This document shows, piece after piece, positions 15,936-41,724 of a DNA stretch of 44,418 nucleotides (its first letter is position 1; each line of letters starts with the position of its first letter). The position numbers and the translations under genes are program-made. Below the pieces are notes generated by a model. The model saw nothing but the letters and a program-made list of their open reading frames with translations, was not told where the DNA came from and did not search any database. This stretch comes from a virus (lineage: Duplodnaviria > Caudoviricetes): positions 1 through 44,418 of IMG/VR virus record IMGVR_UViG_3300048080_000048; one strand, given 5' to 3'.

Positions 15936-17671
15936 ACAAACGTGACAAAAGCTACAAGCCCTCTCAGGGATGGGAAGGGCTCGCCGAACTGGAACTGCTC
16001 CGTGATCTGGGCCGGCGTGACTTCTGGACCTTCTTCACCCACGTCTTCGGTGCTCAGGCCAACCCCAAAGGCAAGGTCTGGATCGACCGCGAGGTCCATG
16101 AGCCGCTCGCCAACTGGTTCCAGGGTCACGTCGACGAGTGGATGGAGAAACGGCATAAGGGGAGGGGGGAGCAGAAACACCTGGCCGTACTCGTTCATCG
16201 AGAGGTCGGCAAGACCACCATGATCACCCAGGCCGGACTCTCATGGCTCCAACTGAGAGACCCGGAACTCAGTATCTACATCGGCTCTGAACGGTCGGAG
16301 TTGAGCCAGAAGATGCTCGGCGGGATCAAGGCGATCATGGACGGCTCCGACCCCTACAGCCTGTTCACCCAGCTCTACGGCAACTGGAGTACCGGAGCGA
16401 GAACCTGGACCGGGAAGGAGATCGTCCACGCCGCGAGAAGAAACACCGCCCGCAAAGATCCTAGCTTCGGCACCTTCGCGGTCGAGACCTCGATCGTCGG
16501 TGCCCACCCCGACGTCTGGTGCGAGGACGACCCCAACTCCTACGAGCGCATGATCTCCGACACCAACTGGTTCGGCGCCGTCAACTCGCAAGCCATTTCC
16601 ATGTTCCCGGTGATCCAGGCGGACGGGCTGGTCATCTGGCCGGGAACTCGATACGGGGACGACGATCACTTCGGTGTCGCCTTCAGGGACGAAGGCATCG
16701 CCTCGATCTCCGGCATGGAGAGCGACAGCCTGTCCGTGGACCCGGACGGCAAGTGGCACGTCTACTTCCTGGCGGGCCGTGACCGAGACGGGAAGCCCAC
16801 GACCCCCAAAGTCTGGCCCGAGAAACGCCTGAAAGACTTCCAGAGGCGAGACCCCCTGCGCTACGCTGCCCAGGTCATGAACGACCCGACCATCTCCGAG
16901 TTCAACCCGGTGACCCGGGACCAGTGCATGCAGGACACCTGCTGGGTCGATCCCAAAGACGTCCCGTGGGGGAACATGAGGTTCGCCCTGCTCTGCGATA
17001 CCGCCTTCTGGGACGGGGCCAAGCTCGCGGGAAAGGACGAAACGGTCTACGTCTGCGTGGGTTATCCCAGGAACTTCTCCGGCGACGTCTACGCCATCGA
17101 GTGCCACTACTCCAACGCCTGGCGTGGAGAGGACCTGGCGAATCGCCTGGTCGCCAAGGTCCAGCAGTACCGCAGTACCGGGAGGAAAGTGTTCGCGATC
17201 ACCGACGAGATCACGGTGGCCGGCAAGGCAGGAGCGTGGCGGCAGTTGCTGAGGAACTACTTCCACGATGCCGGCGAGGCGATGCCGCCGTTCTACGAGT
17301 TTTCCCGTCACTCAGCGCCCAAGGCGAGAATGACCAGCGCCGGTCCCACCGGGCGCCTGGTGGCGGCCGCCGGCTACATCGTCGACGGGCACGTCAAGTT
17401 CGTGAAGGGAGGCCCCGGCTTGATCGGGCTGATCGATCAGATCGTCAAGATCGGCCAGTACATGATGAACCCCAAGCTCAAGATCGACCGCGCCGACGCC
17501 TTCTCCGATGCCTTCCAGCCGGAGCTTTATCAGTCCATGAGACGGAATGAGAAGCGCGCTGGGGGGTACGACCGCGGCTCGGCCGCCGTCGAGGGCGACT
17601 ACCGGACGATGTTCGAGGACGACGAAGCGAGGAACTGGAGAGAGACCGTGCCGAGAGAGCCGCTGCGATGA
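15932..17671 (+). CDS. terL: terminase large subunit
   Basis: Walker A HREVGKTT, Walker B VGAHPDVWCEDDP, GTRY coupling motif, nuclease CDTA...DET and DRADA. Confidence 0.9.
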   Translation: MNKRDKSYKPSQGWEGLAELELLRDLGRRDFWTFFTHVFGAQANPKGKVWIDREVHEPLANWFQGHVDEWMEKRHKGRGEQKHLAVLVHREVGKTTMITQAGLSWLQLRDPELSIYIGSERSELSQKMLGGIKAIMDGSDPYSLFTQLYGNWSTGARTWTGKEIVHAARRNTARKDPSFGTFAVETSIVGAHPDVWCEDDPNSYERMISDTNWFGAVNSQAISMFPVIQADGLVIWPGTRYGDDDHFGVAFRDEGIASISGMESDSLSVDPDGKWHVYFLAGRDRDGKPTTPKVWPEKRLKDFQRRDPLRYAAQVMNDPTISEFNPVTRDQCMQDTCWVDPKDVPWGNMRFALLCDTAFWDGAKLAGKDETVYVCVGYPRNFSGDVYAIECHYSNAWRGEDLANRLVAKVQQYRSTGRKVFAITDEITVAGKAGAWRQLLRNYFHDAGEAMPPFYEFSRHSAPKARMTSAGPTGRLVAAAGYIVDGHVKFVKGGPGLIGLIDQIVKIGQYMMNPKLKIDRADAFSDAFQPELYQSMRRNEKRAGGYDRGSAAVEGDYRTMFEDDEARNWRETVPREPLR

Positions 17672-18876
17672 TCGGTCCCGAGAAGCAACTTGCCCCGGCC
17701 TATACCGAGCGGATGACCTGCCGCGCCTGCGACTCCACGACGCTCGCCTCGGTCCTGGACCTCGGGACCCACAGCCTGCCCTGGTACCTGGAGTCGGGGG
17801 ACGACGAAGCACCCAAAGCACCGCTCAACCTGGTCCGGTGCGCCCAGTGCGCCATGCTTCAACTCCAGCACTCGGTCGACCCCGACCTGCTCTACCGCGA
17901 GTTCTGGTACCGCAGCTCGATGAACCAGACCATGAAGGATGCGCTCTCGGACCTGGTCAACAGGACGGTGGAGCATGTGAAGGAAGGGGTCTGGCTCGAC
18001 ATCGGCGCCAACGACGGCTACCTGCTGTCCCGCGTTCCCGAGACCTTCACGCGGATCGCCTGCGAGCCCGCCCAAAACTTCGAGCCGCAACTGAAAGAGC
18101 ACGCCCACGTCGTGGTACCGACCTACTTCTCGGCCCAGGCCGTCCGCGAGCAGCACGACGGCCCGGTGGACGTCATCACCTCCGCCGCCTGCTTCTACGA
18201 CGTCTCGGACCCCAACGCATTCGTCCGGGACGTCGCCGACCTGCTCGCTCCGGAAGGCGTCTGGGTCAATCAGTTGAACGACTCGCCGACCATGCTGCGA
18301 CGTAACGCCTTCGACTCCATCTGCCACGAGCACGTCTGCTACTACGACCTCCACGTCCTGAAAACTCTCTACGCCGAGCACGGACTCAAGATCGTCTCGG
18401 TGACCCACAACGAGGTCAACGGCGGCAGCATGCGCGTCTTCGCCTCCAAGTCCGGGGCCGAGGTGGATCTGATCGTCGTCCCCTCCGTCACCCAGCAAGG
18501 TGCCCGCTGCTTCGCCGAGAGAGTCGTGCGCTGGAAGGATCAGGTGTCGAGCCTGCTCAAGAACTCGGACCTCTTCCGCTTCGCCCCCGTCTGGCTCTAC
18601 GGGGCCAGCACCAAGGGCTCGACGCTGCTTCAGTACCTGGGCTGCAACGAGAGTTTCCTCGCGGCGGCGGACCGCAACCCGGCCAAGTGGGGGAGACGCA
18701 TGGCGGGGACGGGGATCCCGGTCGTCTCCGAGGCCGAGATGCGGAAGGCCAGACCAAAGTTCCTGATGGTGCTGCCGTGGGCGTTCGCAGAAGAGTTCAA
18801 CCGGCGCGAGATGCTGCTGCGCCAGCACGGCACGACCATGGTCTACCCGCTGCCGGACTTCCGGATGGTGCTCTAG
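17668..18876 (+). CDS. SAM-dependent NDP-sugar C-methyltransferase (TcaB9/NovU/EryBIII-type architecture)
   Basis: N-terminal CRAC...CAQC zinc domain, LDIGANDGYLL, FDSICHEHVCYY, YGASTKG, DRNPAKWG, LPWAF. Confidence 0.9.
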   Translation: MIGPEKQLAPAYTERMTCRACDSTTLASVLDLGTHSLPWYLESGDDEAPKAPLNLVRCAQCAMLQLQHSVDPDLLYREFWYRSSMNQTMKDALSDLVNRTVEHVKEGVWLDIGANDGYLLSRVPETFTRIACEPAQNFEPQLKEHAHVVVPTYFSAQAVREQHDGPVDVITSAACFYDVSDPNAFVRDVADLLAPEGVWVNQLNDSPTMLRRNAFDSICHEHVCYYDLHVLKTLYAEHGLKIVSVTHNEVNGGSMRVFASKSGAEVDLIVVPSVTQQGARCFAERVVRWKDQVSSLLKNSDLFRFAPVWLYGASTKGSTLLQYLGCNESFLAAADRNPAKWGRRMAGTGIPVVSEAEMRKARPKFLMVLPWAFAEEFNRREMLLRQHGTTMVYPLPDFRMVL

Positions 18877-19526
18877 TGCCGGAGCGCATTGCCGTGCTGT
18901 GCCCCACCCGGGATCGGCTCCCGGGATTCAGAAGGGCGGCCACGTCGGTTATCAACTCAAGCACGCTGGTCGACTTCATCGGCTACATCGACGGTGACCA
19001 GCACTACACCTATTTTGGCCCGGGACCGGAGAAGTCGTGGAACGACAGGGTTCTGTTCACGGTCGGGGACAGAATCGGGCCGGTGGCGGCGGCCAACGAA
19101 CTGGCTAGGACGCACCCCGGCTACGACGTCTACGGCCTGCTGACCGACGACTGCACGGTGACGACCCCCAGATGGGACGAGTGGGTGCTGGAGGCTGTGA
19201 AGCAGTTCCCCAACCGCATCTGCGTCATCTCCCCGCACCACAACATGGGTAACCACGTCGACATGCCGTTCGTCACGAAGGAGTGGATCAAGGCGGTGGG
19301 CTGGTACGCCTGCCCGGACTGTTACCACTATTCCTGGCCGACCATCACCGGGTTGATCGGCGAGATGACCGCCATCTGCCACGCCCCCGCGCACAAGTTT
19401 CACGTGGAACACGCGGACCACGTCCAGGACCACACAGCACAGACCCGTGACGCCCAGCCGTTCTACGAGTTCGTGAGCCTGAAACTCCCTGCGGTCGTGG
19501 AGCGGCTGAGACAGGCGATGTCGTGA
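18876..19526 (+). CDS. GT-A (GT2-like) glycosyltransferase 1
   Basis: IAVLCPTRDR, YIDGD, LLTDDC. Confidence 0.75.
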   Translation: MPERIAVLCPTRDRLPGFRRAATSVINSSTLVDFIGYIDGDQHYTYFGPGPEKSWNDRVLFTVGDRIGPVAAANELARTHPGYDVYGLLTDDCTVTTPRWDEWVLEAVKQFPNRICVISPHHNMGNHVDMPFVTKEWIKAVGWYACPDCYHYSWPTITGLIGEMTAICHAPAHKFHVEHADHVQDHTAQTRDAQPFYEFVSLKLPAVVERLRQAMS

Positions 19527-19565
19527 GGCCCGCCAAGGCATGCTCGTCAAACGGAGGATAGGCTG

Positions 19566-20204
19566 ATGTCGGTCGCGGTCGTGTGCCCGAGCAGGGAGCG
19601 GCCGCAACGGTGTTCGGCGATGATCGAAAGCATGGTCAACACCTCGGACGCTCACGCGCTGGTCTACTTCGACGAGGACGACTCGACTCACCCACCAGTG
19701 GGAGCCTGGAATGGCCCGAGGGTCAGAACTCTGCTGGGGCCTCGCATCGGCAGGGGTGCTTCGATCAACGCCCTGTGCCAGACCTTCCGAGACTACCGCT
19801 GCTACCTGCTGGTATCGGACGACATCGTGTTCTCCAGAACGGGCTGGGACCAGGAGGTCGAAGCCGCGATGGACTCGTTTGGGGACGACATCGGCCTGGT
19901 GCATCTTTCCACCGGGATCGACGCGGGATTCTGCAACTGGCCTTGCGTCTCCAGGAAGTGGGTTGACGCCGTGGGGTGGTTCAATCCGCCCACCCTCAGA
20001 TCTTACTGCCAGGACACGGCACTCCAGGTCATGGCCGAAGCTCTGGGGCGCATCCGGTACATCGAGCCGCCCGTCCTGATCCACGACTGTGTGACCGATG
20101 ATTCGGGGGCGCACCGTTTCAGCAACGACCTGAACGCCTTTCTATGGTTCATGGCGCTTCAGTTCGGCCCGTCCTTGAAGAAACTCAGGGCGGTGATGTC
20201 GTGA
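19566..20204 (+). CDS. GT-A (GT2-like) glycosyltransferase 2
   Basis: VAVVCPSRERP, YFDEDD, LVSDDIVF...GWD. Confidence 0.8.
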   Translation: MSVAVVCPSRERPQRCSAMIESMVNTSDAHALVYFDEDDSTHPPVGAWNGPRVRTLLGPRIGRGASINALCQTFRDYRCYLLVSDDIVFSRTGWDQEVEAAMDSFGDDIGLVHLSTGIDAGFCNWPCVSRKWVDAVGWFNPPTLRSYCQDTALQVMAEALGRIRYIEPPVLIHDCVTDDSGAHRFSNDLNAFLWFMALQFGPSLKKLRAVMS

Positions 20205-20857
20205 CCGTCCCACTCGACCCTGTGATGATGGCCCGCGTGGCGGCTGGAGACCCGACGCTTCCCCCCAACGGTCCGGTCAACAACTGGATCGCCCACCAGT
20301 TCCCCGAAGGATACCGGGGCTACTGTATCGACGTGGGTGCCTCGGACGGGCTGTTCGTCAACTCAACCTACCTCCTGGAGAAGGACTACCGCTGGACGGT
20401 CCTGTCGGTCGAGGCCAACCCGGCAATGAAGCCGCTCCTGGTGAAGCACCGCGCGTTCGTCAAGATCTGCGCGGTCGGCCCGGAGCCAAAAGACGGTGCC
20501 GACTTCCATATCAACCTGGACAACCTTGAGGCGTTCTCAAGCCTCACGCCACAGCGGGGTCACCCGCGATTCAGGGAAGAGGCCGGCAAGCGGTGGGGGA
20601 CGATCAAGGTCGATGTCAGGACGCTGGAGCAACTCCTGGCGGAGTGGGAGTTCCCGCGCCTGGATGCCCTGTGCGTCGACGTCGAAGGGGGTGAGCTGGA
20701 TGTGCTCAAGGGGATCAATCTCAGGCGGTGGAAGCCACACGTCGTGGTCGTCGAATCCTGGGAAGCGGGGGCGCTGGACGACTACCTGGTCCCGAAAGGA
20801 TATGCGCGTCTCTGGCGCAGCGCCGACAACGACGCCTACATCCGGGGCCAGGAGTGA
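20201..20857 (+). CDS. FkbM-family methyltransferase
   Basis: IDVGASDG...SVEANP...LCVDVEGGELDVLKG...VVE. Confidence 0.9.
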   Translation: MTVPLDPVMMARVAAGDPTLPPNGPVNNWIAHQFPEGYRGYCIDVGASDGLFVNSTYLLEKDYRWTVLSVEANPAMKPLLVKHRAFVKICAVGPEPKDGADFHINLDNLEAFSSLTPQRGHPRFREEAGKRWGTIKVDVRTLEQLLAEWEFPRLDALCVDVEGGELDVLKGINLRRWKPHVVVVESWEAGALDDYLVPKGYARLWRSADNDAYIRGQE

Positions 20858-21549
20858 AGCCGATCCTGGTGGTCTGCGCCAGCCGCGGCAGGCCGGATCG
20901 CCTGGAGCGGATGGTTGCCTCGGTGGAAGAGACCAGTACTCAGGCAGACGTTGCGGTCTACGTCGACGAGGACCAGGAGAAGGACTACGATTCTCTCGAA
21001 GGGGCTCATCGGTTGTTCTTCGGCCCACGGATCGGCCAGTGCCGGTCGCTGAACGCCTTGGTCAAGAAGTCTCCGGGGTACGAGGTCTATGGATCAGCCA
21101 CCGACGACTGTCGGTTTGAGACACCGGGCTGGGACCGCTGGGTGCTGGAGACGGCGAGAAGCTTCAGCGGCGGGATAGGTCTGATCGCTCCCGACTCGGG
21201 GCAGAGCAAGCCGAGGATGGACTTTCCCTGGGCCACCGCCCGTTGGATCGAAGTGGTCGGTTCGTTCTCGGGGCTGGACACCTACCACTCCTACTGGGAC
21301 GTGGGGCTTCAGCTTCTGGGGGAGGCGACCAACATCAGGTTCGCCAAACCTGACGAGTTCAAGATCTGGCACGAGGGGCTGATGATGGACGACTCGGTAG
21401 ACACCGCCCTGACGGACGTGGGCAAGATGGTGTTCAGCCTCTACCACATCCACAACGATGCTCGCACCTGCTGCGTCTGGATGGCTCACGAACGGCAGGC
21501 GCTGGTCGACAAGCTCAGGGCGGCGATGAACGGCAAGGAGAACCCATGA
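20854..21549 (+). CDS. GT-A (GT2-like) glycosyltransferase 3
   Basis: VVCASRGRP, YVDED, SATDDC..TPGWD. Confidence 0.75.
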   Translation: MKPILVVCASRGRPDRLERMVASVEETSTQADVAVYVDEDQEKDYDSLEGAHRLFFGPRIGQCRSLNALVKKSPGYEVYGSATDDCRFETPGWDRWVLETARSFSGGIGLIAPDSGQSKPRMDFPWATARWIEVVGSFSGLDTYHSYWDVGLQLLGEATNIRFAKPDEFKIWHEGLMMDDSVDTALTDVGKMVFSLYHIHNDARTCCVWMAHERQALVDKLRAAMNGKENP

Positions 21550-22424
21550 GCACCGTCTTTAGCTTTCCAGGGAAAAGTGGCGATGCGCTGCTCCAGTTCC
21601 CGGTGGCCTACCAGTGGCACAAGATCACGGGTAAGCAGTTCGACTGCTGGCTGGACGAGCACACCTGCAAGCCGGTGGAGAAGCTGTTCGCGGCGCAACC
21701 GTGCGTCGGCGAGGTCAAACTCATCTCCGGTGTCGAGAACTGGAACTGCGGCGGCCAGCCGTTCCACATGAACCTGCCCACGTCAGCGTTCGCCGAGCAC
21801 ACCGTCTACCACCTGGGGTTCAGGAGCTTCCCGCAGCGGCAGATCACGCTGGAAACCCTGGAGAACTGCAAGCTCCCGGTGACGGTCGACCGCGAGGCGC
21901 TGGCGAGTGAACCGTGCTTCGCGTGGCCCGGTTCGATTGAGTTCCCGGTGGAAGGGCAGCGGGTGGCAACGCGCCGCCTCATTCTCCACGGCCAACCGAT
22001 CTGCCCGCACACCAAGAGCACCCCGGGCTTCTGGCCGTTCCTCTCCAGCATCGCGCATGAACTTCCGGCCCTGTTCGACGAGATCGTCTGGGTCGGAGAC
22101 GCGAGGGACCGCGAGATCGGCACCCGGACCTACCCCGAGTGGAAGGACTTCAACGACGTAGGGAGCTTCCTCGAAACCGCGCGGCTGATGTCCGGGGCTT
22201 CGTGCGTCATCGCCTGCGGCTCCAGCATGGCAGCACTCGCCCAGGTCATGAAGATTCCGTGCGCGAGAATCCATGACCCGATAGGGGGGTCCCCCAAGGT
22301 AATATGGTCGGGGTTAGGCGATAACCAAATCAACGAGACTGAGCTCGGGATGAGGAGCCAATGGCCTATCTTCAGGGACCGCTGGATTACCAAAGCAAGC
22401 GGTGTTCAAAGTGCCGCGAGCTGA
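21546..22424 (+). CDS. GT-B glycosyltransferase, GT9 (heptosyltransferase)-like
   Basis: GKSGDALLQFP N-terminal motif; FLETARLMSGASCVIACGSSMAALA C-terminal motif. Confidence 0.65.
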   Translation: MSTVFSFPGKSGDALLQFPVAYQWHKITGKQFDCWLDEHTCKPVEKLFAAQPCVGEVKLISGVENWNCGGQPFHMNLPTSAFAEHTVYHLGFRSFPQRQITLETLENCKLPVTVDREALASEPCFAWPGSIEFPVEGQRVATRRLILHGQPICPHTKSTPGFWPFLSSIAHELPALFDEIVWVGDARDREIGTRTYPEWKDFNDVGSFLETARLMSGASCVIACGSSMAALAQVMKIPCARIHDPIGGSPKVIWSGLGDNQINETELGMRSQWPIFRDRWITKASGVQSAAS

Positions 22425-28036: not shown

Positions 28037-28239
28037 TGGCCCTGTTCCCCAAGCGCCAGGTCAAGAAGCGGGTGGGGTACCGCACGACCGGTCTGGGCGC
28101 GGGCTACGAGCATGCGGTCCAGGAAGGCGTCGGGATCGAGCCCGGGGCTCACCCCGAGTACCAGCGTGGCCCCAGGCTCGGCAACCCGATCCGGCAGATC
28201 GGCGACATCTGGAAGAAGCTCTTCCCGAGGAAGAAGTGA
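28036..28239 (+). CDS. small basic protein
   Basis: TGATG coupling. Confidence 0.55.
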   Translation: MALFPKRQVKKRVGYRTTGLGAGYEHAVQEGVGIEPGAHPEYQRGPRLGNPIRQIGDIWKKLFPRKK

Positions 28240-29567
28240 AGCCGCCGCTCGTGGTCTACACCGTCATCCCGGACCGGCACAGCGCCTCCCACTACTACCG
28301 GCTCAGGGTGCCGCTGGAGACCGCTTCTGACCTTGGGCTCCCGGTACGGGCCATCATCGACCACAATGACCTGACGGTATCTCCCGGGGACCGGATCAAG
28401 GCCTTCTGTGAGTCTGACCTGATCCTGCTCTACCAGCCGATCGGCGACCAGCCGGTCCAGAATGTCCGTGGGGTTCAGAGCTTCATTGCCTCCAAACGGG
28501 ATGGGGCGTGGAAGTGGCCGCCGACCTTCGTGGTCGAAAGCGACGACAACCTGTTCAACGTCTCGCCCCTGAATCAGGCGTTCCGCAGCCTGGGGGTCCG
28601 GGACATGGAAGGAAACACCATCCCGCTCAAGCACCACGTCGGGGTGGTCCAGCAGGGCGAGCGCAAGGTGTTGTGGCGCGATGTCCCGAGAGACGGTGAA
28701 CCCGAGGACCCCGCTCTGGCCCAGATCCCCATGGTGGACCTGCTCAAGAACCGACAGACGCTGGCGACCTACCGAAAACTGATGGAGATGGCCGACGCCG
28801 TGACCTGCTCGACCCAGGGCGTGGTGGACGCGATCTCGAAGGAACTCACCCCGCGGCGAACCCGTGTGTTTCCTAACCTGGTGCGGATGGACCACTACGA
28901 GCAGGTGGATCTGAGGGAAGACCCGTTTACCATCAAGATCCTCTGGCAGGGCGGGATCGCCCACTACGAGGATTGGTACCCGCTGCGAGAGGCCCTGGGA
29001 AACATCACCCGCAAGTATCCGGAGGTCCACTGGATCATCTGGGGTGCCCAGTTCCCGTGGGTCAAGGAGCTGATCCCGGCCCACCGCTACACCTTCAAGT
29101 CCTGGTGCCCTTACCAGGAGTACAAGCTCCGGCTGTCGATGATCGGCCACGACATCTCGCTGGCACCTCTTTCCAGCAACGTCTTCAACGACTGCCGCTC
29201 GGCGATCAAGTTCTACGAGGCCTCGGCTCTGAAGAAGCCCGCCGCGACGCTGGCGCAGAACACCGCAGCCTACAAGGCCGAGATCAAAGACGGAGAGACC
29301 GGCCTGCTGTTCAACGACCCGGAGGAGTTCGAGACCCAGTTGTCGCTGCTGATCGAGAACGAGAAGGAGCGCAGGGTCCTGGCCGCCAACGCGAAGGACT
29401 GGATCTCCGAGAACCGTGACGCGATGAAGAGGGTCCCGGAGATGGTCGCCTACTGGGAAGACCTGCGCGAACAGCGCAAGCGCGAGCAGCCCCATGTCTC
29501 GGACGAGCAGTGGGAGACGATCCAGAAGGAAGCGGAGGCTGAAGAGGCCGCCGCGGCACCGGCCTAG
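28236..29567 (+). CDS. GT-B glycosyltransferase (GT4-like)
   Basis: YYRLRVP, ESDDNL, ADAVTCST, VFPN, ILWQGG..HYED, DISLAPL..NVFNDCRSAIKFYE, DGETGLL. Confidence 0.85.
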   Translation: MKPPLVVYTVIPDRHSASHYYRLRVPLETASDLGLPVRAIIDHNDLTVSPGDRIKAFCESDLILLYQPIGDQPVQNVRGVQSFIASKRDGAWKWPPTFVVESDDNLFNVSPLNQAFRSLGVRDMEGNTIPLKHHVGVVQQGERKVLWRDVPRDGEPEDPALAQIPMVDLLKNRQTLATYRKLMEMADAVTCSTQGVVDAISKELTPRRTRVFPNLVRMDHYEQVDLREDPFTIKILWQGGIAHYEDWYPLREALGNITRKYPEVHWIIWGAQFPWVKELIPAHRYTFKSWCPYQEYKLRLSMIGHDISLAPLSSNVFNDCRSAIKFYEASALKKPAATLAQNTAAYKAEIKDGETGLLFNDPEEFETQLSLLIENEKERRVLAANAKDWISENRDAMKRVPEMVAYWEDLREQRKREQPHVSDEQWETIQKEAEAEEAAAAPA

Positions 29568-39331: not shown

Positions 39332-39403
39332 CCGGGGCGCAACGGCGGGGCCGATGAGAGCCGTGGCACATGGATGTGCCCGCGCCCCGAATCAGGAGGA
39401 TGG

Positions 39404-39805
39404 ATGAGCCCTGACGAATGGAGCAAGATCCGCTGGTTTTCCAGCGAAGAGTTCGACTCGAAGGACCTCCCCGGCTCGGGGCTCTCGGGGATGCAGGCTC
39501 CGTTCATCTTCAAGCTGGATGAGCTGAGAGGCCGCTGGGGCAAGGCTCTCTCGGTCAACTCGGGATTCAGGACGGCGGAGCACAATGCCAGGGTCGGTGG
39601 CAAGCCCAACAGTGCTCACCTGAGAGGACTTGCCGCCGATCTCAAGACCTCCGGGCTGACCGAAGCTATCCGACTAGCGATCTGCGCCGCCCAGATGGGG
39701 TTCAAGCGTATCGGCGTGGACAAGGCGGGTCGCTACATCCATGTCGACCTGGACGAAGCCCTGCCGATGGCGACCTGGTTCTACTCGGAAGAGATCTTCG
39801 CGTGA
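39404..39805 (+). CDS. endolysin, peptidase M15 family
   Basis: SGFRTAEHNARVGG..NSAHLRGLAADL...YIHVD; AGGAGG RBS. Confidence 0.9.
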   Translation: MSPDEWSKIRWFSSEEFDSKDLPGSGLSGMQAPFIFKLDELRGRWGKALSVNSGFRTAEHNARVGGKPNSAHLRGLAADLKTSGLTEAIRLAICAAQMGFKRIGVDKAGRYIHVDLDEALPMATWFYSEEIFA

Positions 39806-40134
39806 GCGAGGTCAATCTTGAACATATTCGGGACGGGGTAGAGGACTTGAAAACCGCGCTCGCGGTCCATGATTCCAGGGTCGAGGCCAACGTCGGCCGT
39901 CTGGTGGATGCTCAGGAGCGCATGGCGTCGGCGGTGGAGCGGATCGGCGATGCGACGCTGGCCATCAAGGGCCTGACCGAGCAGATGCGGAAGAACGGCG
40001 ACGTGAAGCCGACCGCGACGCTGGCCATCGACAATAAGACCCTGCGCTGGATGATCGGGGCTCTGCTGCTGGGGTCGGTCGCTATCGGTGGCGGGGAGAA
40101 AGCGGTCTCGGCGATGCTGGCACTGTTCGGGTGA
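39802..40134 (+). CDS. coiled-coil protein with C-terminal TM segment (lysis module)
   Basis: WMIGALLLGSVAIGG hydrophobic segment. Confidence 0.6.
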   Translation: MSEVNLEHIRDGVEDLKTALAVHDSRVEANVGRLVDAQERMASAVERIGDATLAIKGLTEQMRKNGDVKPTATLAIDNKTLRWMIGALLLGSVAIGGGEKAVSAMLALFG

Positions 40135-40156
40135 ACCGTAACCAGAGGAGGATGTC

Positions 40157-40528
40157 ATGGAGAACGTCACTGGAGTGCTGCAAAACCCGCTGTTCCTGGC
40201 CGTCCTGGGGATCGTCTTCGCCCGTGCGCCCAAGGTCAGGGTCTTCATCGCCAACTCGATCATCCCCTACATCCAGACGGCGATTGCTTTCCTGCCGACG
40301 CTCTTGGGGTCTTTGAGCGGGGCGACGGTGCCGGCCAATGCCTGGGCCGGTCCACTGGCGCTGGACCACTACCCGCAGCTGATGATCGGCTTCAACTTCT
40401 TCGGCTCGGCGGGAGGACTTCTGGGGGGATTGGCGGGAGCGGCATGGCAGGCGGCTCAGTCCCACCTGCTCTACAAGCTCTTCCTCCACAAGCCGCTGGG
40501 GAGAGACCCTATCGACTCCAAGCAGTAG
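40157..40528 (+). CDS. holin-like membrane protein
   Basis: 2-3 hydrophobic segments, last gene of the lysis module; GAGGAGG RBS. Confidence 0.55.
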   Translation: MENVTGVLQNPLFLAVLGIVFARAPKVRVFIANSIIPYIQTAIAFLPTLLGSLSGATVPANAWAGPLALDHYPQLMIGFNFFGSAGGLLGGLAGAAWQAAQSHLLYKLFLHKPLGRDPIDSKQ

Positions 40529-40558: not shown

Positions 40559-40635
40559 TGTGCGGGATGGTCGTGGCCGCAGTGCGGGCAGGGCGCTGAG
40601 CACGCGCGTCGACGAAAGTCCACCAATCACGCACA
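40559..40635 (+). ncRNA. candidate three-way-junction RNA motif, copy B
   Basis: TGTGCG..GATGG/CCAATC..CGCACA stem, CGTG..AG-CACG arm, GAC-GAAA-GTC hairpin. Confidence 0.4.
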
Positions 40636-40679
40636 CGGGACCCCGCGGATGAAGGCGGGTTGTCCCGTGTCTTTTTTTT
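40633..40679 (+). terminator. intrinsic terminator of the late operon
   Basis: ACACGGGAC-CCCGC/GCGGG-TT-GTCCCGTGT stem followed by C and T8. Confidence 0.85.
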
Positions 40680-40694
40680 GGCCGATGGAAGTGT

Positions 40695-40779
40695 GCGGGG
40701 GTGGCGAAATCAGGCAAACGCACTCGCCTTGGACGCGAGTGGGTCCAAACCCTTGCGGGTTCGAATCCCGTCCCCCGCA
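40695..40779 (+). tRNA. class II tRNA with Leu-type body and TGG (Pro) anticodon; CCA not encoded
   Basis: Acceptor GCGGGGG/CCCCCGC, A73; D-arm GCG-AAATCAGGCAAA-CGC; anticodon arm CTCGC-CTTGGAC-GCGAG; V-arm GGGT-CCAA-ACCC; T-arm GCGGG-TTCGAAT-CCCGT. Confidence 0.9.
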
Positions 40780-40868
40780 CACAAACAAGCCTGTCATTGG
40801 CACGTCCATGGTGTCAACCAGCTACATGAGGCGGCGGCCCTCCGGGGATAGTCCAAGGACCCCGGTAG

Positions 40869-40900
40869 AAAAAAACCCCTTCGGCGCAAGCCGAAGGGGT
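40869..40900 (-). terminator. intrinsic terminator (minus strand)
   Basis: CCCCTTCGGC/GCCGAAGGGG 10-bp stem followed by T7 on the minus strand. Confidence 0.85.
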
Positions 40901-40950
40901 CAAGGGAAGACCTACCCCGTCCCAAGGGACGGCTCAGTCCTCGTCCACAA

Positions 40951-40979
40951 GATATGCCCAATGCTTGCTTGGTTGTCAA
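40951..40979 (-). promoter_or_regulatory. sigma70-like promoter for a candidate sRNA
   Basis: TTGACA-N17-CATATC. Confidence 0.5.
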
Positions 40980-41314
40980 GGGGCCTTCTTAGCTGGCTCG
41001 CGCAGATTGGCAATTCGCACGATGGCCTTGGTCGGGATGGTCATGTCGCCACAACCTTGGCGGCCGATGGTGTTCGCGTGTGGCGTGGTGAGGTGGGGCA
41101 CCACCACCTTGCAGTCGGGGCCGTCGTAGACCAGCCAGCCGACCGACTTACAAGCGAGCGCCTGGGCGCTACAGCCGTCGAGTGGCTGCCAATCCGAGGA
41201 ACACCCGAACGAGTCAAGCCACTCGACGTAGACCAGGCTACGGCTTCTTGCGCTTCTTCGGCTTCGGCGGCTCGTACTGCGTGAGGGCCGACCCTGCGAC
41301 GCTGTCTCGCTCAT
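40976..41314 (-). CDS. conserved small phage protein
   Basis: LVYVEWLDS...W...CKSVGWL...IP..AI pattern. Confidence 0.7.
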   Translation of the reverse strand: MSETASQGRPSRSTSRRSRRSARSRSLVYVEWLDSFGCSSDWQPLDGCSAQALACKSVGWLVYDGPDCKVVVPHLTTPHANTIGRQGCGDMTIPTKAIVRIANLREPAKKAP

Positions 41315-41724
41315 GCTACCCCCGCCTGCTGGAGCCTCTGCTTCAGACTGACTCGCATCCCGGCTAGGTCCACCCGTCTCCCGTTCGAGCGCAGCTTGAG
41401 CATGTCGAATCGCTCCTGCCCGATCTTGGCAATCACCCAGTCGCGCTTCTGCTCCCAGTGCTGGTCCATGTATCTGTGACAGCCTCGGCACCATGCCCAA
41501 GCATTGTCTTCATCCCAGCGCACCGAACGTGCGGCGCGTGTGAAGACGTGACACCAAGAGAGCCAGCCCGTCCTGAGACATCGCTGGCAGGCTCCGTACC
41601 ACTGGTTGCGTCCCTCGTCCGTCGCCAGTCCGGCATTGGCCCGCAGCATGACCAGCGTGCGGGCCATGTCGTCTAGCTCTTTGATGGACGGCGTGAGTTT
41701 CCTGCGGATCGGCGTGCGAATCAT
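41311..41724 (-). CDS. NinG/Rap-like HNH-fold nuclease
   Basis: LDD...CQRC...CHVFTR...VRWDEDN...CRGCH. Confidence 0.7.
   Translation of the reverse strand: MIRTPIRRKLTPSIKELDDMARTLVMLRANAGLATDEGRNQWYGACQRCLRTGWLSWCHVFTRAARSVRWDEDNAWAWCRGCHRYMDQHWEQKRDWVIAKIGQERFDMLKLRSNGRRVDLAGMRVSLKQRLQQAGVA

Follow-up and report, generated by a model that had tools for sequence, protein, structure and literature searches.

A tRNA family with a leucine-type body and a UGG anticodon, its association with IS1595 transposons, and its probable capture by a sediment phage

The DNA analysed here (the window) is an entire virus record of 44,418 nt from a sediment metagenome, and carries the genes of a tailed phage, including a terminase, a portal or head-tail adaptor, a major capsid protein, an endolysin, a NinG-like nuclease and several glycosyl- and methyltransferases. 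No integrase was found among the subset of window ORFs scanned with PHROGs and Pfam. The late genes on the plus strand run to 40528 and an operon on the minus strand ends at 40976, with a tRNA gene in the gap between them. The features of this junction are as follows.

39374..40528, plus strand: end of the late operon, preceding the terminator and the tRNA; an endolysin-like gene and two small genes of unknown function
40633..40679, plus strand: intrinsic terminator-like hairpin followed by T8, ending 15 nt before the tRNA
40695..40779, plus strand: class II leucine-framed tRNA gene with anticodon UGG (from sequence reading, ARAGORN and Rfam)
40788..40817, minus strand: sigma70-like promoter facing back into the tRNA (a consensus match only)
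40867..40901, minus strand: terminator of the convergent minus-strand operon, with a 12-bp stem and a T tail
40976..41314, minus strand: unknown ORF of 112 aa with a VEWxD motif, possibly co-captured cargo
41238..41315, minus strand: start-less remnant of a small basic gene, overlapping the 112-aa ORF in another frame

The preliminary description had recognised a cloverleaf combining a leucine-type body with a UGG anticodon, and had regarded it as the sole tRNA of the phage. Both points are borne out, the first by ARAGORN, Rfam and a position-by-position reading, and the second by an ARAGORN search of the whole 44-kb window, which returned a single tRNA, tRNA-Pro(TGG), at 40695-40780; Rfam model RF00005 matches 40695-40779 with 57.6 bits (E 5.7e-10). 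The acceptor stem is fully paired (7/7, with G1-C72), as are the anticodon stem (5/5) and the T stem (5/5, including one G-U pair), and the D arm consists of a 3-bp stem with A13, A14, A15, G18G19 and A20a. The anticodon TGG occupies 40730-40732 within the loop 40728-40734, which also holds A37 and C38, and is followed by a variable arm at 40741-40752 of 4 bp with a 4-nt loop, with U48 present. The discriminator is A73 at position 40779, and the 3' CCA is not encoded, CAC coming next.

The hairpin upstream of the tRNA is a stronger fold than any of 200 shuffled sequences (z -4.5) and is predicted to end the late/lysis transcript, in which case the tRNA would depend on read-through. On the other side, the putative antisense promoter consists of a -35 box at 40817-40812, an 18-nt spacer and a weak extended -10 box at 40793-40788 that ends 8 nt from the 3' end of the tRNA, at which, around 40781, an antisense RNA is predicted to start. 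This site was not among the results of a stricter promoter scan, and promoter scans found no sense promoter adjoining the tRNA. The terminator at 40867..40901 is predicted to shield the antisense promoter from upstream transcription. A second promoter-like site lies on the minus strand within 40868-40979 (-35 box at 40979-40974) and is followed by a stretch of about 85 nt that folds into two stable hairpins, the terminator coming last (z -3.5); the region 40868-40979 is possibly a small RNA, matching no Rfam family at gathering score. A riboswitch or attenuator was considered for 40560-40635 and rejected, given no Rfam match, a fold no better than z -1.1 against shuffles and no homologue in other loci. 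Elsewhere in the genome, a block of methyl- and glycosyltransferase genes at 17668-22424, between terminase and portal, and one more such gene after the capsid gene (28236-29567) are common to relatives and possibly form a capsid or DNA glycosylation module.

In the available text of the review by Giege and Eriani (PMC9976931), the E. coli leucine determinants are A73, A15-U48, G18G19 and A20a, the proline determinants of E. coli are G72 and G15-C48, and an archaeal tRNA-Pro, that of A. pernix, owes its identity to G1-C72, the discriminator and the anticodon. The window tRNA has every bacterial leucine body feature that was tested (A73, A15-U48, A14, G18G19, A20a and the long variable arm), thereby upholding the resemblance to bacterial tRNA-Leu drawn in the preliminary description. 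The departure from canonical bacterial tRNA-Pro claimed there also stands, as G72 and G15-C48 are missing and the full canonical set (C1-G72, G37, G15-C48, short loop) is replaced by G1-C72, A37, A15-U48 and a long arm; the six host tRNA-Pro genes inspected, from four carrier genomes, are ordinary, each having a short loop together with C1-G72 and G37. The leucine anticodon base A35 is absent, so the gene is not a canonical tRNA-Leu, though leucine-like charging is possible. The gene also matches the archaeal/eukaryote-type ProRS set in G35, G36, A73 and G1-C72. With the leucine set present, G72 and G15-C48 absent and G1-C72 present, the molecule fits LeuRS, fails a bacterial-type ProRS and could fit an archaeal-type ProRS. 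In the tRNA clusters of large phages (L012, L013, L015, L027, L036 and L038), a leucine-like D arm and a long arm were observed on serine (G73) and histidine (C73) tRNAs, which means that identity cannot be read from such a D arm by itself.

A misassembly, or an ordinary tRNA-Leu whose anticodon has mutated only recently, would suit a stretch that occurs in one data set only and in no relative, yet this explanation is largely refuted and retains hardly any credibility. The TGG, for which the preliminary description had looked to read support, agrees throughout with a single assembled contig of depth 33 that spans the whole stretch without mismatch and is perhaps the source assembly itself, hence not independent. 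With this body and anticodon found together in 116 other distinct tRNAs, an assembly error is very unlikely. An exact 28-nt search of viral contigs gave 0 matches, and BLAST of the tRNA against cultured phages matched nothing; the combination as such recurs in 117 distinct genes from many phyla, which disposes of a private mutation, an outcome that the preliminary description had held open. A score that left out the anticodon and positions 37-38 favoured the UGG family borne on insertion sequences over host tRNA-Leu by 22 bits for the window gene, which exceeds all 32 host genes (32 of the 56 fetched host loci fitted the full pattern), and UGG members make up all 15 of its nearest neighbours. 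The body is thus closer to the family than to any host tRNA-Leu, and the window tRNA is a member of this UGG leucine-framed family on the evidence of its sequence.

The distribution of the family was charted by several scans. A pattern search of viral sequences for a leucine-type D arm, a long arm and a non-leucine anticodon gave 34 loci with many anticodons, 4 of them TGG, and a relaxed viral scan gave 19 stretches in which the only family members were the 4 already known. In bacterial genomes (30 of 64 parts scanned), TGG was the commonest anticodon with 26 of 121 matches, under a pattern that required A73 and C or G at position 35 and so excluded anticodons with A or T there; the carriers include Acidobacteria, Alphaproteobacteria, Planctomycetes, Chloroflexi, Gemmatimonadota, Eisenbacteria and others. 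In metagenomes (35 of 64 parts scanned), 104 of 120 NGG loci were TGG. Among the 117 UGG genes, the acceptor stem is 7/7 in 99 and the anticodon stem 5/5 in 102, and in 24 hand-picked rows 15 of 20 stem pairs change on both sides, so that pairing is kept by compensation. Leucine marks not forced by the pattern are also common, A73 being found in 84/92 and U48 in 115/117, as against C1-G72 in 7/117; A37 is found in 75 genes and G37 in 42. Counting the window, the geometry of the antisense promoter is seen in 12 of 101 collapsed UGG loci against 1.3 expected, compared with 5/128 loci with other anticodons, 3/88 ordinary tRNAs and 0/32 host tRNA-Leu. In some elements a small cargo gene lies on the antisense-promoter strand beyond the tRNA, so the promoter may serve this gene while also making antisense RNA. 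In four loci (L122, L138, L310 and L272), one or two mismatches occur in the anticodon stem while the other stems are perfect, and these could lower decoding and toxicity.

The neighbours of these tRNAs link the family to a transposon. Integrases had been expected beside them from ORF sizes, an expectation abandoned when Pfam showed IS1595 transposases; the nearest 3' ORF of UGG tRNAs is often such a transposase (PF12762, PF12760). By profile search, an IS1595 transposase lies beside the UGG tRNA at 51 of 117 loci, and where at least 1.5 kb was available on both sides it is present in 18 of 29 loci and missing from 11, as compared with 0 of 19 for tRNAs of the CGC class. The tRNA is enclosed by terminal inverted repeats in 7 of 12 loci examined, and near-matching direct repeats flank several IS1595 loci. 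The UGG tRNA family therefore rides as cargo of IS1595 transposons. A second kind of cargo is a small basic, proline-rich protein of 45-60 aa, found beside UGG tRNAs in 35 of 42 profile hits (loci L002, L183, L236, L262 and L295 among them); one member tested had no PHROG match.

The transposases themselves bear a mark of the tRNA that they carry. In 37 UGG elements (collapsed at 80% identity, with a median pairwise identity of 45% in the related set), CCA makes up 19/20, 13/15 and 17/17 of the proline codons at three alignment columns, the first close to the start, the second in the linker that precedes the catalytic domain and the third a few codons short of the stop. Since these columns were chosen after seeing the data, a within-gene permutation rather than a Fisher test is the valid comparison; the sum of the top three columns is 49, whereas 2000 permutations gave a mean of 30 and a maximum of 41. 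No such concentration was seen in 55 elements for which ARAGORN called no tRNA within about 3.5 kb, a criterion that may overlook some tRNAs. CCT stands at two of the three columns in both AGG elements, and GGA at the last column in one of the two TCC elements that reach it; the other TCC elements and those with CGA, CGG, TGA, TGC, GGA and TAT have no matching codon at the three columns. The transposase codon thus follows the anticodon of the cargo. At the structural prolines that the UGG elements have in common, CCA makes up 6 of 94 codons. A special avoidance of CCA at structural prolines was also considered for the UGG elements and dropped, with no difference seen (6/94 vs 9/152).

Which amino acid is delivered at these sites is not proved by the locked columns. 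The idea that a locked column demands leucine is weakened by the tRNA-less elements, in which the last column varies (Leu 18, Pro 14 and Thr 8 of 52) and the first is never Leu. In the small cargo protein, a conserved Gly-Pro site has a nearly invariant proline whose codon is CCA in 16 of 32 cases, which fits delivery of proline, or sabotage, as well.

The type of ProRS in the hosts bears on the same question. Among 25 UGG-carrier genomes, 13 have a bacterial-type ProRS only, 9 an archaeal-type only and 3 both or parts of both, although these MAGs may be incomplete or misbinned; the archaeal type is thus found in 12 of 25, one being split and below cut-off. It is conceivable, if quite unlikely as an account of the window gene, that an anticodon-reading enzyme of archaeal/eukaryote type treats the molecule as a long-armed tRNA-Pro and loads it with proline, whether exclusively or alongside leucine. 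The G1-C72, A73 and anticodon of the A. pernix set (as given in the available text of PMC9976931), the archaeal-type enzyme in 12 carriers, including an Eisenbacteria MAG with a similar tRNA, and the near-invariant prolines among the locked CCA sites would all accord with it. Ten of the tRNAs from the 13 bacterial-type-only carriers, however, start with G1 and lack G72, the full leucine set is conserved, and the same body bears GCC, TCC, CGC and other anticodons. Leucine charging seems the simplest general rule for the family because its carriers often have only the bacterial-type ProRS with a G1 tRNA without G72, and because the nev-tRNAs of nematodes offer a precedent; dual or proline charging is possible in hosts with the archaeal-type enzyme. 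Two other tRNAs from the bacterial-type-only carriers have C1-G72 and G37 and may have turned into genuine tRNA-Pro. The UGG leucine-framed genes at L179:2501-2585 and L180:2501-2585 (Tepidiformaceae MAGs) combine C1-G72 and G37 with hosts of bacterial-type ProRS and no nearby transposase, and may be converted, true long-armed tRNA-Pro.

At the phage junction, little of a parent element can be recognised. Neither an IS1595 transposase nor a typical small basic cargo protein was found in the window, the best end-motif score at the junction is 3.7 compared with 12-31 for real element ends, and no target duplication was found there. Along 80 aa, the 112-aa ORF is 40% identical to an ORF situated in an IS1595 locus (L238) between its UGG tRNA and its transposase, and the start-less remnant has a 9-residue motif in common with a small ORF beside another IS1595 transposase (L411) and also resembles a small ORF in L238, evidence that is weak (E 18 in a search of the whole set). 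The pair hints at a captured cargo block; a weaker homologue of the 112-aa ORF in 1 of 28 related phage records means that this ORF may instead be native. BLAST of the neighbouring ORF against phages and plasmids matched nothing.

The related phages place the acquisition on this lineage. No tRNA of any kind was found in 47 related records, mostly fragments with 10 at least 90% complete (L057 and L058 left out), and the junction between late and early genes measures about 450 nt here, whereas in four relatives, judged from rough ORF picks, the genes abut or stand some 35-85 nt apart, a fifth giving no clear value. With no tRNA in any relative and a junction longer than in those four, the gene is a private gain of this phage, and the notion of a conserved trait of the phage family is rejected. 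The preliminary description had looked to related phage genomes for the same combination, which the 47 records do not hold. Relatives of the endolysin are too distant to inform, with one unrelated tRNA-Met among 17 loci.

It had further been suggested that the phage programmes the insertion of leucine at CCA and CCG codons, a suggestion that the analysis does not support. CCA is rare and not enriched in 26 phage ORFs (39/451 proline codons). In hand-picked real phage genes with at least five aligned homologues, CCA sites fall at columns with a proline majority in 22/27 cases and a leucine majority in 0/27, CCG sites in 118/168 and 0/168 respectively, and of 244 columns with at least 70% leucine none is coded by CCN in the phage. 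In the capsid gene, with 119 homologues, both CCA and all nine CCG codons stand at proline-majority columns. Over the genes as a whole, a single CCC site has a leucine majority. Stable recoding of CCA or CCG to leucine is thereby ruled out, while low-level misreading is beyond the reach of a column test.

These results also weigh on two explanations that credit the phage with a use for the tRNA. In the first, which appears unlikely, the gene is kept because it helps late in infection, when the host tRNA-Pro has been cut or left uncharged: a leucine-charged reader of UGG type would then free ribosomes stalled at proline codons, or serve as a decoy. Every stem is perfectly paired although the transposase and element ends are gone, which could mean that the phage selects for the tRNA, and its place at the end of the late operon, as well as the A37 and long arm that set it apart from host tRNA-Pro, would agree with such a function. 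Yet the relatives manage without a tRNA, CCA is a rare proline codon in this phage, most of its CCA sites are conserved prolines at which leucine should harm, and a terminator and an antisense promoter-like site flank the gene. In the second, to which only little probability can be assigned, the tRNA is a weapon that deliberately misreads proline codons as leucine in host proteins or in IS1595 transposases with fixed CCA. Mismatched allo-tRNAs arrest E. coli growth when induced, according to the available text of PMC5389517. IS1595-like transposases are common in viral contigs, 603 stretches matching their patterns, and some of their locked CCA sites encode near-invariant prolines; such misreading would, however, also strike the CCA and CCG prolines of the phage itself, no sense promoter was found beside the gene, and the relatives do without it.

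The explanation considered somewhat probable overall is that the phage carries a captured IS1595 cargo tRNA without its transposase, charged with leucine, reading CCA and made only weakly. As the tRNA comes from a widespread transposon-borne family, the phage likely picked it up from one such element; the capture is inferred, for no element end survives, and 11 of the 29 long UGG loci likewise lack a transposase. An IS1595 element, or its cargo, would have entered the permissive gap between the two operons, the transposase and element ends being lost thereafter. The tRNA would then be made only by read-through of the late terminator, receive its CCA end from the host and presumably be charged by LeuRS, whereupon it would compete with host tRNA-Pro at CCA while the antisense RNA damps it. 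The outcome would be at most a low level of proline-to-leucine misreading late in infection, with no phage gene tuned to the tRNA. In the parent elements, by contrast, the tRNA would decode the fixed CCA codons and so probably gate translation of the transposase. A bolder version, tentative and rather unlikely, would have IS1595 own a private switch, namely a leucine-charged reader of proline codons that is checked by antisense RNA and gates the transposase at planted CCA codons, which the phage stole as a means of blocking incoming IS1595 elements or of sustaining translation once the host tRNA-Pro has been disabled.

Several known systems offer points of comparison. The IS1595 family includes transporter insertion sequences with passenger genes, and the UGG family resembles them in lying between IS1595 terminal inverted repeats together with passenger ORFs; the phage window differs in having no insertion sequence. 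The bldA tRNA-Leu(UAA) controls rare TTA codons in Streptomyces, and is chromosomal and reads a true leucine codon. The UGG tRNA is alike as a leucine tRNA that would gate genes via a rare codon, and unlike in that its codon belongs to proline. The nev-tRNAs of nematodes are charged with leucine and decode a foreign codon in vitro (Hamashima et al. 2012, PMC3333845, in its available text), and are weakly expressed and tied to rare codons according to the accessible part of a review (PMC4033280). They share the leucine-derived, long-armed body with a non-leucine anticodon; they are eukaryotic with Gly or Ile anticodons, whereas the UGG family is bacterial or phage-borne and tied to IS1595. The allo-tRNAs and irregular tRNA polycistrons, from what is accessible of Mukai et al. 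2017 (PMC5389517), are likewise mismatched, long-armed tRNAs of soil and sediment bacteria, located near transposon and toxin-antitoxin genes and toxic when induced. The allo-tRNAs have 8/4 or 9/3 acceptor branches and mostly a G73/U73 serine identity; the window tRNA, with its 7/5 branch, A73 and leucine D arm, fails that definition, and one supplementary table of the same paper has no UGG entry. The tRNA-ProX/ProRSx mistranslation pair of Streptomyces (PMC11415595, in its available text) is another natural bacterial case of body-anticodon mismatch involving proline. By analogy, the UGG tRNA appears to resemble nev-tRNAs in design and allo-tRNAs in lifestyle.

No description of IS1595-borne leucine-framed UGG tRNAs was found in the open literature (subscription papers and most supplements lay outside the search), nor, in the literature searched, of mismatched tRNA cargo or anticodon-matched transposase codons in IS1595. 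Natural mismatched tRNAs are known from few lineages, whereas the UGG family recurs across many phyla on one transposon family; together with its codon lock, it would surprise a specialist. The fixed positions of the matching rare codon in the transposases make it directly testable whether a mobile element is controlled at codon level by the tRNA that it carries. The phage copy shows that the tRNA can leave an IS1595 element intact, and to annotate such genes as tRNA-Pro on nothing but the anticodon is likely to be a mistake. The significance for this phage by itself is more modest, with no recoding, possibly a muted passenger and no phage-specific use seen.

Leucine-framed bodies with other anticodons were encountered along the way. 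A class with A73 and a CGC (alanine) anticodon accounted for 18 of the 121 genome matches, mostly from Gemmatimonadota, with GGC, AGC, GCG and GGT also seen; its loci include L125, L129, L132, L143, L155, L165, L172, L184, L185, L205, L215 and L217, and a promoter-like site on the sense strand lies just downstream in 7 of 19. Further irregular or mismatched tRNA-like genes lie upstream of the UGG tRNA in L134, L137 and L138, and others occur in L372, L375, L380, L400 and L414; these genes, which adjoin UGG tRNAs or IS1595 transposases, have long-armed bodies with CGC, TGC, TAT and GGA anticodons.
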